This document shows, one piece after another, positions 10,074 to 57,892 of a stretch of DNA of 64,000 nt. This DNA is from Escherichia phage vB_Eco_F31: the sequence record OP870147.1; one strand, given 5' to 3'. The notes beneath the pieces were generated by a model that worked only from the letters and a program-made list of their open reading frames with translations, searched no databases and was not told the DNA's origin. Made by a program: the position numbers and the translations under genes. Numbering within the stretch: position 1 is the first letter of the stretch; every line of letters starts with the position of its first letter.

Positions 10074-10110
10074 ATTATTTTCCTCGGTTATTTTATTATC
10101 CAACGAGAGA

Positions 10111-10139
10111 ATTATACTCATCTCTCAAGAGTTTGTATA
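10111..10139 (-). promoter_or_regulatory. early promoter / stem-loop cassette
   Basis: TATACA-N17-TATAAT; inverted repeat GAGAGA/TCTCTC brackets the -10; near-copy at 40648. Confidence 0.6.
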
Positions 10140-10379
10140 CTATTTTTTAAGCATGAAAAGTAAGTAATTTGTATCACGTGGAGTAATATCAACACCCATA
10201 TCAAAGATGCCTTTATAGATTGGGTATTTGTTTTCGGTTGTATCGAAGCTGAAACTATTTCCATCACAACTAACAGTAATAGCATCTGTTAAAATGTCAT
10301 ACTCAATCCTAACAATTGAATCCCCAATTTTAACGTCGAGGTGTTTTTTGAATTTGATAAAATCTAATTCTTGGGCCAT
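10140..10379 (-). CDS. hypothetical protein
   Basis: 79-aa ORF downstream of promoter cassette. Confidence 0.5.
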   Translation of the reverse strand: MAQELDFIKFKKHLDVKIGDSIVRIEYDILTDAITVSCDGNSFSFDTTENKYPIYKGIFDMGVDITPRDTNYLLFMLKK

Positions 10380-10410: not shown

Positions 10411-10439
10411 ATAATAACATGTCTTCCTATCGTTGTACA
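10411..10439 (-). promoter_or_regulatory. early promoter / stem-loop cassette
   Basis: TGTACA-N17-TATTAT; perfect 9-bp repeat GATAGGAAG/CTTCCTATC brackets the -10. Confidence 0.6.
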
Positions 10440-26030: not shown

Positions 26031-26058
26031 ACTATAACACAACCTGAGGAGAAGTAAA
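26031..26058 (-). promoter_or_regulatory. early promoter inside SD-sequestering inverted repeat
   Basis: TTTACT-N16-TATAGT; repeat CTCCTC (26010..26015) / GAGGAG (26046..26051) pairs the SD of ATG 26003. Confidence 0.55.
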
Positions 26059-26070
26059 CTGATAGATGCC

Positions 26071-26099
26071 AAAAAAAGCCCCAACCATAAGGAAGGGGC
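26071..26099 (-). terminator. rho-independent terminator (GCCCC...GGGGC cassette) after rI
   Basis: Minus strand GCCCCTTCC-TTAT-GGTTGGGGC followed by T7; 8 nt after stop at 26107. Confidence 0.7.
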
Positions 26100-29198: not shown

Positions 29199-29657
29199 CT
29201 AGATTTTAATCACTGCTTTAGAAGCTTTTCCTGGTAGTCGTTTACTGTTAATAATAGCCATTCTACATTGAAGAGTCTTCATTTTGAATGCCGGATTTTC
29301 GCGACAAACTGTAAGTCCTAACCAAAGATTTCCGTCAGTTATTTCTAAACGGCCTGGACGATACTCGACACCTTCGACAAAATCTTCATCAACATCTGGA
29401 CGTGCCGGCATTGATAAAAATTCTGCAACTTCTTTAACGTGATTTTTTACTTTATGAAATAATTCAAAAACGTAATTCTCATCTATTTCTCTCTGGATGG
29501 CACGATCTAAGAGATGTTGAGAATACTTGATATGAAAGCCTGGTAGTCCAAGAGACTTTGCAGCATCTTTTATACCGGCATTTATTTTGCGGAACTCCGT
29601 TTCAAAGATTCGACGGAGTTTATTACGGCGGATAAAAACTTCCGAATTGATAGTCAT
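29199..29657 (-). CDS. regB: endoribonuclease RegB
   Basis: 152 aa; MTINSEVFIRRNKLRR...QHLLDRAIQREIDE...GRLEITDGNLWLG close to T4 RegB from memory. Confidence 0.92.
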   Translation of the reverse strand: MTINSEVFIRRNKLRRIFETEFRKINAGIKDAAKSLGLPGFHIKYSQHLLDRAIQREIDENYVFELFHKVKNHVKEVAEFLSMPARPDVDEDFVEGVEYRPGRLEITDGNLWLGLTVCRENPAFKMKTLQCRMAIINSKRLPGKASKAVIKI

Positions 29658-29685
29658 TTTGATTTCTCCTCTAGTTGACAGGTCT

Positions 29686-29713
29686 ATAGTAACACAACTA
29701 GAGGAGAAGTAAA
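29686..29713 (-). promoter_or_regulatory. early promoter inside 13-bp SD-sequestering hairpin (regB)
   Basis: TTTACT-N16-TACTAT; perfect repeat TCTCCTCTAGTTG (29665..29677) / CAACTAGAGGAGA (29695..29707); one arm contains regB SD. Confidence 0.6.
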
Positions 29714-40012: not shown

Positions 40013-40606
40013 TTATTTCAAAGAGTTAATATATTCTTGTACATCAGCAGAAGTGGTTTCGACACCAGCTGGAGTGCCATTGAACGTTTCAACACGAGTT
40101 AGAGTGTCTTCGATATCAACCTTAGTCAGTGCAGCGATTTCAATTACATCATCGGCCGTAGAGATACCAAGGGCATTAGCTGCTCGAGTTTCACGAATGT
40201 ATTCGAGTTTGATTGCCAGATTCTGCCGAGCATCATCAAGTTCAACCACCTTACGAGCAATTTCAATTCGCATAGCGGCATACCCGTCAGCTTTTGTATT
40301 AAGTTGTTCGGCAGTTCGACGATACAGAAGACCAAGCTTAGCATGCATAGTAACATCTTGTCCTTCGGCCAGGAGCTTACGAATTTCACGTTCCTTAGAA
40401 GCGGCTTGCTTGTTCTTTTCATTAACAAGTTCGCGAATACGTTTTTCTTCATTAATAGATTTAACAGAAGCCGTTTTTAGTTCTTTGATTTGGGTAATCA
40501 ACTTATCTGCAGCTGCGTTATACTGTTCTTCGACAGTCAGATTTTTAGCCATAGCAGTACCCAGTTTAGTGCGGATGAATTCAACAAGTTTCTTCAGTGT
40601 GTTCAT
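40013..40606 (-). CDS. hypothetical coiled-coil protein
   Basis: Start placed at ATG 40606 ([10 protein letters not shown]...). Confidence 0.55.
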
Positions 40607-40647
40607 ATTATTACCTTTCAATTGGTGGTTTATTATCCAACGAGAGC

Positions 40648-40676
40648 ATTATACTCTGCTCTCAAGAGTTTGTAAA
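40648..40676 (-). promoter_or_regulatory. early promoter / stem-loop cassette
   Basis: TTTACA-N17-TATAAT; repeat GAGAGC/GCTCTC brackets the -10; near-copy of 10111 cassette with compensatory changes. Confidence 0.6.
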
Positions 40677-40904
40677 TTATTTTTTAATCAAATTGACATA
40701 AAACTTGGCGTCTTCAGGGTGCATGCCTTCGCAGTATTCTTCAACCATGAACTTCTTAACAGCTTCATAAGGACCACTCAGATTAAGCTCAGTTGTCCAG
40801 AACTTGGAATCTTGGACTGAATCGATACGAACTTCAGGGTGGCGGTTGCGAATAACTTCTTCGGTGTATTCATAATCAACGACATCAATACTAACTTTAG
40901 CCAT
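40677..40904 (-). CDS. hypothetical protein
   Basis: 75-aa ORF. Confidence 0.5.
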   Translation of the reverse strand: MAKVSIDVVDYEYTEEVIRNRHPEVRIDSVQDSKFWTTELNLSGPYEAVKKFMVEEYCEGMHPEDAKFYVNLIKK

Positions 40905-41545: not shown

Positions 41546-41579
41546 CATCTTTATGAAATATTTTTATGCCCTAGATGCC

Positions 41580-41606
41580 AAAAAGCCCCAACCATAAGGA
41601 AGGGGC
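41580..41606 (-). terminator. rho-independent terminator (GCCCC...GGGGC cassette)
   Basis: Same hairpin as 26071 copy followed by T5; 6 nt after stop at 41613. Confidence 0.7.
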
Positions 41607-42077: not shown

Positions 42078-42122
42078 GTTGCTTTTCCTAAATTAATTAA
42101 CTTATCTATTTATTATTATGCC

Positions 42123-42149
42123 AAAAAGCCCCAACCTTTCGGAAGGGGC
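42123..42149 (-). terminator. rho-independent terminator (GCCCC...GGGGC cassette, GAAA loop)
   Basis: Minus strand GCCCCTTCC-GAAA-GGTTGGGGC followed by T5; closes the tRNA/RNA locus. Confidence 0.7.
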
Positions 42150-42823: not shown

Positions 42824-42900
<77 letters not shown>

Positions 42901-42903
42901 GAT

Positions 42904-42978
42904 TGGTGACCCTGGCTGGTTTCGATCCAGCTACCTATCAGTTATGAGCTGACAGCTCTCCCATTGAGCTACAGGGCC
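42904..42978 (-). tRNA. tRNA with CAU anticodon (Met, or Ile2 if lysidine-modified)
   Basis: 75 nt with CCA; acceptor GGCCCTG/CAGGGTC, anticodon loop CTCATAA, T-arm GCTGG/CCAGC; 3 nt from tRNA-Arg. Confidence 0.85.
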
Positions 42979-44451: not shown

Positions 44452-44480
44452 ACTATAACATAGTCCTATCTGCATGTAAA
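44452..44480 (-). promoter_or_regulatory. early promoter / stem-loop cassette
   Basis: TTTACA-N17-TATAGT; perfect 9-bp repeat GATAGGACT/AGTCCTATC brackets the -10. Confidence 0.65.
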
Positions 44481-56400: not shown

Positions 56401-56550
56401 TCGGAACGACGTAAACTGATGAGCCCATTATTTGATGCGTCCGGAACAACATTCTCTAGATTTAGAGATTTGGTTGAACAACGGTTAATCGATAATGTAG
56501 GAAATCCAAGAGACCCCGTGAATCCACCGCAGGTTAAATTAGATGAATGA
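53452..56550 (+). CDS. 7: baseplate wedge initiator gp7
   Basis: 1032 aa, same length as T4 gp7. Confidence 0.85.
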   Translation: MTVKAPAVTSLRISKLSANQVQIRWDDVGANFYYFVEIAETKTADGEIIPPASYRWINLGYTPNSNWFENSLDPLTSYIIRVSTAAEGFERSDWVYTEIFESFQTNAYTFQHMIEMQLANTFIREKFTNNNMAYVDFNNDTIMAALMNESFQFSPAYADISSIKNFIIGENEYHEIQGSIQQVCHDINRVYLMESEGILYLFERYQPVVKVSNDKGQTWKSVKLFNDRVGYPVSRTVYYQTDYTTYVLGYDKLFYGRKSTDVRWSADDVRFSSQDITFAKIGDQLNLGYDVEIFGNYASLPANVSRIAEAIVCNDDYVYVAARDKVRFIKTSNAPIDSDPLSPTYSERLFEQETFNITGNPKAVCYKMDSVGGKIFALIIGEVVNLNDDPRTTPIVDSADKGVYVLDHDAGTFKRVFGNTEEERRRIEPGYTSMSTDGVELSISSSNFKFLESDIVDDPKTQIKYGLIGAVKYEYPREWLADKHYHMMAFISTEDSQWESFTPQPMEYYAEPFFSYSRKSGTRCWINNSDKAVVIYSDLLYTKVIENHPLSSSDREVHEYWKDGDCTIVMPNVDFTGFKKYASGMIFYKSSGEIISYYDFSYRVRDNVSIIWKPTNIFLTASLQNQEKDTTWTPVEENGITDPDLRPLLTTMMPESYLLDNTNFEAFCEAYIQYLSDGYGTHYNNLLNLIKNQYPREEHAWEYLWSEIYKRNIYLNAEKRDLVSRFFESRSYDFYSTKGTEASYKFLFKVLYNEDVEIEIESSSGTEYDIIIESDSLTEDLVGQTIYTATGRCNVTYIERSYSKGKLQWTVTIHNLLGRLIQGQEVKAERLPGFEGEIVRGIKGKELSQNNIDYINRGRAYYVMKIKSKLPSSRWKSDVLRFVHPVGFGFIAITLLTMFINTGLTLKHVETIINKYKNYKWDSGLPTKYADRVAKLDPQGNVEFDPITGKAIYEIGPMAGQDYPLPEDYNAENNNSIFQGQLPSERRKLMSPLFDASGTTFSRFRDLVEQRLIDNVGNPRDPVNPPQVKLDE

Positions 56551-57577
56551 TTCAAGTGTTATCTATCGTGCAATAGTTACATCAAAATTTAGAACAGAAA
56601 AAATGCTGAATTTTTATAATTCAGTTGGGGATGGAGATGATAAGAACTCCATTTATATTACGTTCGGACGTTCAGAGCCTTGGGCGTCAAATGAAAATGA
56701 GGTGGGCTTCGCCCCACCTTATCCTACAGATTCTGTTCTTGGTGTTACTGATATGTGGACCCATATGATGGGTACCGTTAAAGTTTTACCTTCAATGTTA
56801 GATTCTGTTATTCCTAGGCGTGATTGGGGAGATGTGCGATATCCGGACCCTTACACGTTTAGAATTAACGATATAGTCGCGTGTAATACTGCTCCGTACA
56901 ACGCGACAGAAGTTGGAGCTGGTTGGTTAATTTACCGTTGTTTAGACGTCCCTGACGTAGGGCTCTGTTCAATAGAATCTTTAGATAATAAAGATGAATG
57001 TCTTAAATTGGGTGGTAAATGGACTCCGTCTGTTCGTTCTATGTCTCCTCCTGAAGGCAGAGGCGATGCTAATGGGGTTATCGAAACCGGTGATGGATAT
57101 ATTTGGGAATATCTTTATGAGATTCCTGCCGATGTGTCAATTAACCGTTGCACTAATGAATACCTTGTAGTTCCATGGCCGGAAGAAATTAAAGAAGACC
57201 CAACCCGTTGGGGATATGAAAATAACTTAACTTGGCAACAAGATGACTATGGCTTGATTTACCGTGTTAAAGCCAATACGATGCGGTTTAAAGCATATTT
57301 TGATTCGGTTTATTTCCCTGAGGCAGCTTTGCCTGGTAACAAGGGTTTTAGACAGATATCAATTATCGCAAACCCGTTAGAAGCTAAGAAAAATCCAAAT
57401 GACCCTAATGTTAAAGCAGAAAAGGATTATTACGACCCTAGAGACTTGCAACGTCATTCTGGTGAAATGATTTATATGGAAAACCGACCACCTGTTATTA
57501 TGGCAATGGACCAAACAGAAGAAATTAACATTTTGTTTATGTTTTCCCAACCCGTTGGGGATATGAAAATAACTTAA
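56543..57577 (+). CDS. 8: baseplate wedge protein gp8 with aberrant 10-residue C-terminal tail
   Basis: 344 aa; frame runs from duplication copy 1 into copy 2 out of frame, adding SQPVGDMKIT after ...INILFMF. Confidence 0.85.
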   Translation: MNDSSVIYRAIVTSKFRTEKMLNFYNSVGDGDDKNSIYITFGRSEPWASNENEVGFAPPYPTDSVLGVTDMWTHMMGTVKVLPSMLDSVIPRRDWGDVRYPDPYTFRINDIVACNTAPYNATEVGAGWLIYRCLDVPDVGLCSIESLDNKDECLKLGGKWTPSVRSMSPPEGRGDANGVIETGDGYIWEYLYEIPADVSINRCTNEYLVVPWPEEIKEDPTRWGYENNLTWQQDDYGLIYRVKANTMRFKAYFDSVYFPEAALPGNKGFRQISIIANPLEAKKNPNDPNVKAEKDYYDPRDLQRHSGEMIYMENRPPVIMAMDQTEEINILFMFSQPVGDMKIT

Positions 57578-57892
57578 CTTGGCAACAAGATGACTATGGC
57601 TTGATTTACCGTGTTAAAGCCAATACGATGCGGTTTAAAGCATATTTTGATTCGGTTTATTTCCCTGAGGCAGCTTTGCCTGGTAACAAGGGTTTTAGAC
57701 AGATATCAATTATCGCAAACCCGTTAGAAGCTAAGAAAAATCCAAATGACCCTAATGTTAAAGCAGAAAAGGATTATTACGACCCTAGAGACTTGCAACG
57801 TCATTCTGGTGAAATGATTTATATGGAAAACCGACCACCTGTTATTATGGCAATGGACCAAACAGAAGAAATTAACATTTTGTTTATGTTTT
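57199..57892 (+). repeat. perfect tandem direct duplication, 2 x 347 bp
   Basis: 57199..57545 and 57546..57892 are identical on inspection; flanking bases differ so boundaries are exact. Confidence 0.9.

Follow-up and report, generated by a model that had tools for sequence, protein, structure and literature searches.

A repeated promoter cassette of RB69-like coliphages carries a covarying stem around its -10 box

Two copies of a promoter cassette

The DNA analyzed here, henceforth the window, is a stretch of 64,000 nt from Escherichia phage vB_Eco_F31 (OP870147.1), an RB69-like coliphage of the genus Mosigvirus that shows 98-99% identity to Mosigvirus genomes. The early genes of the window are encoded on the - strand, which we refer to as the gene strand. 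On this strand, a repeat of 62 nt is present in two copies (10092-10153 and 40629-40690) that are 90% identical, with differences at 6 of the 62 positions. The original prediction had placed both copies correctly, quoted their sequences accurately and recognized a genuine repeat, but put its length at only ~50 bp. Each copy spans the entire intergenic gap between two co-oriented genes: as judged from tblastn searches with RB69 proteins together with the RB69 annotation, copy 1 lies between the RB69ORF075c homologue and 55.2, and copy 2 between frd.3 and e.6. The parts follow one another in the same order in both: the upstream gene's stop codon, a tract that is A-rich and UP-like, the -35 hexamer, a 17-nt spacer, the -10 hexamer TATAAT, a shared leader, and the Shine-Dalgarno (SD) sequence and ATG of the downstream gene. 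The AT-rich tracts directly 5' of the -35 boxes, which include the upstream stop codon, are AAAAAATAG in copy 1 and AAAAAATAA in copy 2. The features of the two copies are as follows.

10092..10153, - strand: copy 1 of the cassette (repeat family D15)
10140..10142, - strand: TAG stop codon of the upstream ORF 10140..10379 (ORF075c homologue), directly 5' of the -35 hexamer
10134..10139, - strand: -35 hexamer TATACA of copy 1 (10/12 promoter match, 17-nt spacer)
10121..10127, - strand: 5' arm TGAGAGA of copy 1, within the promoter spacer (sequence, alignment, folding)
10111..10116, - strand: -10 hexamer TATAAT of copy 1, in the loop (sequence, promoter match)
10104..10110, - strand: 3' arm TCTCTCG of copy 1, ending at the transcription start expected from the usual ~7-nt spacing after the -10 box
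10091..10101, - strand: GGATAATAAAA in the shared leader, a perfect match to the RegB/S1 consensus GGA(G/U)RAYARAA (PMC3014915)
10071..10085, - strand: SD GAGGA (10085-10081) and ATG (10073-10071) of 55.2 (sequence, tblastn)
40629..40690, - strand: copy 2 of the cassette, in the frd.3/e.6 gap (repeat family D15)
40677..40679, - strand: TAA stop codon of frd.3, abutting the -35 hexamer (sequence, tblastn)
40671..40676, - strand: -35 hexamer TTTACA of copy 2 (11/12 promoter match, 17-nt spacer)
40658..40664, - strand: 5' arm TGAGAGC of copy 2 (sequence, alignment, folding)
40648..40653, - strand: -10 hexamer TATAAT of copy 2, in the loop (sequence, promoter match)
40641..40647, - strand: 3' arm GCTCTCG of copy 2 (sequence, alignment)
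40628..40638, - strand: GGATAATAAAC, a 10/11 match to the RegB/S1 consensus (sequence comparison)
40604..40619, - strand: SD GAAAGGT (40619-40613, containing AAGG) and ATG (40606-40604) of e.6 (sequence, tblastn)

That the copies share a promoter and a 5' UTR, as had been proposed, is borne out by their matches to the sigma-70 consensus, which cover 10 of 12 positions in copy 1 and 11 of 12 in copy 2, both with the 17-nt spacer, and are the best in their respective regions. In both copies TATAAT lies inside the loop of a hairpin whose arms occupy the promoter spacer and the discriminator, and the 3' arm is followed by TT and then by GGATAATAAAA (copy 1) or GGATAATAAAC (copy 2). Copy 1 has A-T as the innermost pair of its stem where copy 2 has C-G, and the double change that had drawn attention to the repeat (GAGAGA/TCTCTC vs GAGAGC/GCTCTC) indeed keeps the pairing. 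By a hand estimate, the chance that two of the 6 differences hit one of the 7 pairs and leave it complementary is ~0.02, for a pattern that was noticed post hoc; with two copies only, the double change by itself is weak evidence.

Within the window, no copy beyond these two was detected by a pattern search allowing three mismatches, by blastn-short or by a covariance model run with filters off, and a degenerate 42-nt pattern matches at these two sites only (0.00 matches expected from shuffles). A separate, exact repeat of 300 nt is present at 57199-57498 and 57546-57845, at a distance of 347 nt. It is a second version of the 3' end of the gene 8 homologue (ORF 56543..57577), located before gene 9 (57967..), where the gap in RB69 is only 62 nt, and it reflects either a genuine duplication in tandem or an error of assembly.

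Covariation of the stem in three phage genera

The RB69 genome (AY303349), searched with blastn-short, contains four copies of the cassette, namely the window's two and another two that lie outside the range of the window. The RB69 copy before ndd has the arms TGAGAGC/GCTCTCA, and the copy before RB69ORF231c has CGGGAGC/GCTCCTA, in which a second pair is compensated (A-T to G-C); the copy before 55.2 reads CGAGAGA/TCTCTCG, with the outer T·G replaced by C-G. A first scan of IMG/VR with a pattern that included the 3' leader yielded 3 loci, and a looser one, ACAAACTCT-N8-GAGTATAAT, in which the 5' arm is free and the 3' arm lies wholly outside the pattern, yielded 38. Members of the family come from three genera, Mosigvirus, Dhakavirus (JS98, VR25, IME341 and others) and Gaprivervirus (VR26 and others), and they add new versions of the arms, including TGGGACC/GGTCCCA, TGGGAGC/GCTCCCA and TGGGGTC/GACCCCA, as well as TGGGGCC/GGTCCCA, TGGGATC/GGTCCTG and TGGGAGC/GTTCCCG. 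The inverted repeat is absent from four unrelated chance matches to the same pattern.

We aligned the 17 distinct 38-nt versions obtained from the IMG/VR scan and scored the 7-bp helix. Standard pairs occupy 98.3% of the arm cells, compared with 36-54% in controls with the 3' partner displaced by 1-3 columns, and both sides have changed in 6 of the 7 pairs. The covariation score is 0.575 vs 0.293 in shuffles, none of 500 of which reaches the observed value, and RNAalifold on its own predicts the identical helix. Uncompensated changes in the arms are confined to 2 of 119 cells, both in the outermost pair. Thus, the comparison of related phages that had been suggested as a check turns the suspicion raised by two copies into a strong case for the stem, and bears out the claim that it is functional, as RNA or as DNA. 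Two properties of the sample bear on how these values are to be read: the 5' flank and the loop were prescribed by the search pattern, which makes the conservation of those parts uninformative, and the members are related by descent and gene conversion, so that cell counts overstate the number of independent events. A case of the latter kind is suggested by the sequence of phage HX01, which at its 55.2 locus carries arms of the copy 2 type (GAGAGC/GCTCTCA) in place of the GAGAGA/TCTCTCG found at 10104-10127 of the window, probably through gene conversion between paralogous cassettes. Separately, a 51.8-kb IMG/VR contig (2706796100) has a promoter-like site (L084, positions 59-83) with the arms GGGGTA...TACCCC around TATAGT in the register of the Mosigvirus hairpins.

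Strand and folding of the hairpin

The mismatches in the alignment are unevenly distributed between the strands. Read on the gene strand, 15 cells have G·U (G·T), equivalent to A·C mismatches on the opposite strand, vs only 2 with C·A, both in the outermost pair; within the six inner pairs, G·T is thus the sole departure from Watson-Crick pairing in this reading. This asymmetry points to a structure of the sense strand and not to a symmetrical cruciform. It favors read-through RNA and, with lower likelihood, the non-template DNA strand as the form that pairs, two alternatives that it cannot separate. When all promoter-embedded hairpins of RB69 are pooled, G·T again exceeds A·C (8 vs 3), in the same direction but not significant alone. 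We conclude that the stem is under selection for pairing and that its mismatch pattern indicates the gene strand, and hence probably RNA.

The helix has 7-8 bp with the -10 box in the loop, and its predicted energy ranges from -8.5 kcal/mol in copy 1 through -12.6 in copy 2 to -18.3 in a Gaprivervirus version; the hairpin of copy 1 is weak (z = -1.3 against shuffles). Folding predicts a possible lower stem of 3-4 bp, in which an invariant CUCU pairs with the conserved GGA(U/G). The hairpin is no intrinsic terminator: a U tract is absent, GUUGGAUAAUAAA follows the 3' arm, and a terminator scan of the gene strand found no site at either copy. Likewise, sequestration of the SD was rejected for both copies, given that the SD lies 20-30 nt past the hairpin and is left unpaired by it in the predicted folds. 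Among the curated covariance models of Rfam, none matches the cassette, and in the window only two tRNAs reach the gathering score. The tRNA genes at 42827-42900 and 42907-42978 (- strand) correspond to tRNA-Arg and tRNA-Met in the RB69 annotation.

Which RNA could form the hairpin follows from the position of the arms. The 3' arm ends ~7 nt after TATAAT, where transcription is expected to start, so that the RNA made from the cassette's own promoter should lack the hairpin. The upstream genes have early promoters of their own, with -35 boxes at 10439 and 40961, and no intrinsic terminator was found on the gene strand between those promoters and the cassettes; hence, read-through into the cassettes is expected. 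A literature search for maps of T4 5' and 3' ends returned nothing on these phages.

Relationship to known elements

The cassette closely resembles the promoter-early stem-loops (PeSLs) that Arbiol et al. defined in RB49 and phi1 (Arbiol et al., 2010, PMC2839356), repeated intergenic elements composed of an upstream stop codon, an AT-rich tract, a sigma-70-like promoter, a stem-loop, and a downstream SD and ATG. Stem-loops that overlap the -10 box are listed there as a common subclass, with G-T pairs marked in the figure; reporters showed terminator-like as well as promoter activity for RB49 and phi1 examples, and PeSLs were tied to gene shuffling and mini-circles. The class was subsequently extended to T4/PST and KVP40/nt-1 (Comeau et al., 2014, PMC4122927). 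The element described here is likewise a multi-copy intergenic motif of ~50-60 bp in a T4-type phage (2 copies in the window, 4 in RB69), with a sigma-70-like promoter by sequence match, a ~17-nt spacer, an AT-rich tract with the upstream stop codon, a stem-loop of 7-8 bp that overlaps the -10 box and includes G-T pairs, the SD and ATG of the downstream gene at its 3' end, and insertion or replacement of genes at the cassette between close relatives. Given that all sequence-level features of PeSLs are present, we regard the cassette, with a high degree of confidence, as a PeSL-type promoter cassette with a selected hairpin.

Several differences accompany this assignment. The PeSLs described earlier come from RB49/phi1, T4/PST and KVP40/nt-1 and not from the RB69, JS98 or VR7 groups; the arms are of the GAGAGC or GGGRNC type here and of the G4...C4 type in RB49; the stem-loops of T4/PST are drawn just upstream of the promoter; and the cassette lacks a U tract. 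Furthermore, the PeSL papers (PMC2839356, PMC4122927) contain no covariation test, the word 'compensatory' being absent from that of 2010, and do not describe a conserved RegB-like motif.

The promoter part of the cassette also resembles the early 'uber' promoters of T4 (UP/-35 GTTTAC/TGn/-10; Hinton, 2010, PMC2988021; Nolan et al., 2006, PMC1524935) in its (G)TTTACA-type -35 box, 17-nt spacer and TATAAT, as well as in its A-rich upstream tract and its position before early genes and ORFans, and the preference of RB69 for C at -3 to -1 (Nolan et al., 2006, PMC1524935) corresponds to the C-rich 3' arm. These accounts (PMC2988021, PMC1524935) give a linear consensus with additional conserved positions, however, and mention no inverted repeat enclosing the -10 box. 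In the promoter-coupled terminators of bacteria (Fletcher et al., 2026, bioRxiv 10.64898/2026.08.19.745784), the stem-loop and the promoter of tandem transcription units similarly occupy one and the same stretch of a few dozen bp, but there the stem-loop supplies the -35 box, the T tract serves as the spacer and the -10 box comes after it, whereas the hairpin of the cassette encloses the -10 box and the T tract is absent.

Another familiar arrangement places a promoter inside a hairpin that only read-through RNA can fold, a likeness that extends to the cassette. In the T4 genes e, soc, 49 and I-TevI, the hairpin hides the ribosome-binding site in the read-through RNA, and the inner promoter gives a translatable RNA. 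The hairpin of the cassette differs from these in leaving the SD unpaired, 20-30 nt beyond it. The T4 design itself was found at the window promoters with -35 boxes at 29713 (regB) and 26058.

A RegB-like site in the leader

In every member of the family, GGA(U/G) followed by an A-rich run starts 8-9 nt after the -10 box, that is, 1-2 nt after the hairpin and near +3 of the promoter's transcript, apart from the real SD (loci L005-L046). The motif matches the consensus of strong RegB/S1 sites, GG*AGRAYARAA (PMC3014915), at 8-11 of 11 positions, a single version falling below 9; copy 1 matches at 11 of 11 and copy 2 at 10 of 11 positions. Strong sites are, in addition, unpaired and located between early genes of a phage that encodes RegB; in read-through RNA of the cassette, the GGA may be paired by the putative lower stem. 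In the window, GGAKRAYARAA occurs 5 times vs 0.93 expected, with the perfect match of copy 1 at 10091-10101 among these, and regB itself is encoded at 29202-29657. It is possible that RegB cuts the read-through RNA just 3' of the hairpin, such that the upstream message would keep a protective 3' stem-loop. A second possibility is that the lower stem hides the RegB-like site in read-through RNA, whereas RNA from the cassette's own promoter would carry the site accessibly at its 5' end. That the hairpin and the adjacent RegB-consensus site together constitute a processing module, which would cut read-through RNA into hairpin-capped single-gene messages, is an idea that we offer tentatively and consider rather doubtful.

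Other promoters of the window

Hairpins around the -10 box are not limited to the cassette. Among the 30 early-promoter-like sites on the - strand of the window, 9 have a helix of at least 8 bp that encloses the -10 box (4.8% in shuffles), and 5 of these 9 helices reach 11-13 bp, a length that no shuffle attains. Early promoters with such enclosing helices are located as follows.

-35 boxes at 44480, 37862, 36298, 25609, 36567, 21438, 10439 and 29713, - strand: early promoters with a helix of 8-13 bp enclosing the -10 box

The arms of these promoters are mutually unrelated, as in GATAGGACTAT/GTAGTCCTATC, AGGTCTAT/ATAGACCT and ACGATAGGAAGA/TCTTCCTATCGT, the last of which is found at the promoter that transcribes into copy 1. 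With the cassette family as its basis, a covariance model recovers the two copies at 64 and 58 bits and a member of the GATAGGGCTA promoter family at 21 bits, with the helix of this match in the same columns as that of the cassette. For the GATAGGACTA promoter family, an IMG/VR scan returned mostly chance or coding matches with almost no variation in the arms, and covariation in this family is uninformative. Together, these observations suggest that, in these phages, RNA structures between cistrons are a second role of many early promoters.

A different layout is seen in promoters of the TTTACTTCTCCTC type, where the -35 box is immediately followed by an anti-SD sequence, CTCCTC, that is complementary to the downstream gene's SD, GAGGAG, and pairs with it. 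The clearest example is 29657-29713 (- strand), comprising the regB promoter and leader, and others have their -35 boxes at 26058 and 41545. To judge by the pairing, the SD would be hidden in read-through RNA and exposed in the promoter's own RNA. The - strand of the window also contains three near-identical strong intrinsic terminators, GCCCCTTCC..GGTTGGGGCTTTTT (26068-26099, 41575-41606 and 42118-42149), and at least two of them have an early promoter directly after them (-35 boxes at 26058 and 41545), without a hairpin that encloses the -10 box. A rule that promoters just behind terminators lack the hairpin was considered and dropped, with these two cases (26058, 41545) as the only instances in the window. 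What had been taken for a terminator upstream of the Dhakavirus copies proved to be where a coding sequence ends.

The cassette as a border of gene exchange

In several pairs of phages, the cassette marks the exact border between conserved and unrelated flanks. When the window is compared with phage RPN187 (L045) and with an IMG/VR contig (L004), the upstream flanks are unrelated, and the cassette and downstream sequence are ~100% identical. The reverse is observed in Dhakavirus, where L012 shares its upstream flank with L014 and L037 and the downstream gene is replaced; the pair L031 and L009 again has an unrelated upstream flank. Crossovers within or next to the stem-loop were previously mapped by Arbiol et al. 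(2010, PMC2839356), who speculated on the involvement of a DNA-binding recombination protein.

What the hairpin might do

The explanation that we favor, with reasonable though far from complete confidence, is that the PeSL-type cassette works at the level of RNA, its hairpin acting on sense-strand read-through transcripts, where both the read-through and the hairpin in vivo are deduced from sequence. Under this scheme, the hairpin would form in transcripts that enter the cassette from the upstream one-gene unit, and the promoter's own transcript, which would start at the end of the 3' arm, would be free of it. In the read-through RNA, the hairpin could serve as an intercistronic attenuator, or as a 3'-end stabilizer and insulator for the upstream cistron, and its action may be combined with cutting by RegB at the GGA next to it. 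At the level of DNA, the ~60-bp repeat would in addition offer sufficient homology to T4 recombination for module-wise shuffling of genes.

The location of the cassette at recombination junctions, along with the reported crossovers in and around stem-loops (PMC2839356), lends itself to a different interpretation, in which the inverted repeat acts as DNA and is extruded, in phage DNA that is supercoiled or single-stranded, to give a hairpin or a cruciform. The extruded form might tune promoter opening, with the -10 box single-stranded in the loop, or it might be a recombination target or hotspot for PeSL-flanked genes, through mini-circle formation or cleavage of the endonuclease VII type. The arms indeed lie in the spacer and the discriminator, parts of a promoter in which the structure of the DNA could be of consequence, and a hairpin of the non-template strand is compatible with the mismatch counts, G·T being the least destabilizing mismatch in a single-stranded DNA hairpin. 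A cruciform, however, needs both strands to be paired, and with the 15 G·T cells read as A·C, pairing drops from 98% to ~87%. Moreover, stems of 7 bp with loops of 8-10 nt extrude poorly, and homologous recombination needs only the repeat and not complementary arms. We therefore consider a role of the extruded DNA unlikely, but still worth keeping in mind. A palindrome centered on the -10 box has the classic geometry of a repressor site, and the shut-off of early promoters in T4 has been described as incompletely understood (PMC2988021, PMC3014915), so that the arms could be imagined as an operator to which a dimeric phage or host protein binds and turns the early promoters off. Yet the arms differ even within RB69 (GAGAGA, GAGAGC, GGGAGC), and other promoter families have unrelated arms in the same register (GATAGGACTA, AGGTCTAT, ACGATAGGAAGA). 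Paired changes that keep complementarity are expected of base pairing and not of protein half-sites, and G·T 'pairs' are meaningless to a protein that reads half-sites in a duplex, all of which makes an operator improbable.

A further view would deny the stem any function and see in it a historical accident copied with a mobile promoter cassette, the compensation being due to chance and gene conversion. The double change in the window is, on its own, only marginally unlikely (~0.02, post hoc), gene conversion does occur, as in HX01, and the hairpin of copy 1 is weak. Against this stand the 6 of 7 pairs with double changes and the 98.3% pairing over 17 versions, with the shuffled and slid controls far below, as well as the independent promoter families that have unrelated arms and the same design far above shuffles; a stem without function is accordingly very improbable. 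Finally, hairpins that present the -10 hexamer (UAUAAU/TATAAT) in the loop could conceivably be decoys or feedback elements for region 2 of sigma-70, much as 6S RNA mimics the open promoter. This is a long shot, but if it were true, dozens of such hairpins, in read-through early RNA or in the displaced non-template strand, would contribute to the abrupt shut-off of early promoters.

Implications

Elements of the PeSL kind, including those with stem-loops over the -10 box, were already known. The present analysis extends the class to the coliphage groups of RB69, JS98 and VR7, and adds to the PeSL papers a test of covariation, the strand asymmetry of the mismatches and the RegB-like site. The original prediction included neither the PeSL assignment nor the many other early promoters with hairpins around the -10 box nor the location of the cassette at recombination borders. 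The practical value is modest, consisting in improved annotation of T4-type genomes, with respect to promoters and recombination hotspots, and in a compact natural part that combines a promoter with an insulator; phages of these groups are widely used in therapy and as models. With respect to the biology of these phages, the RegB-consensus motif provides a concrete link from the promoter cassettes to the processing of early mRNA, and the analysis turns what had been a descriptive motif into a testable regulatory element.
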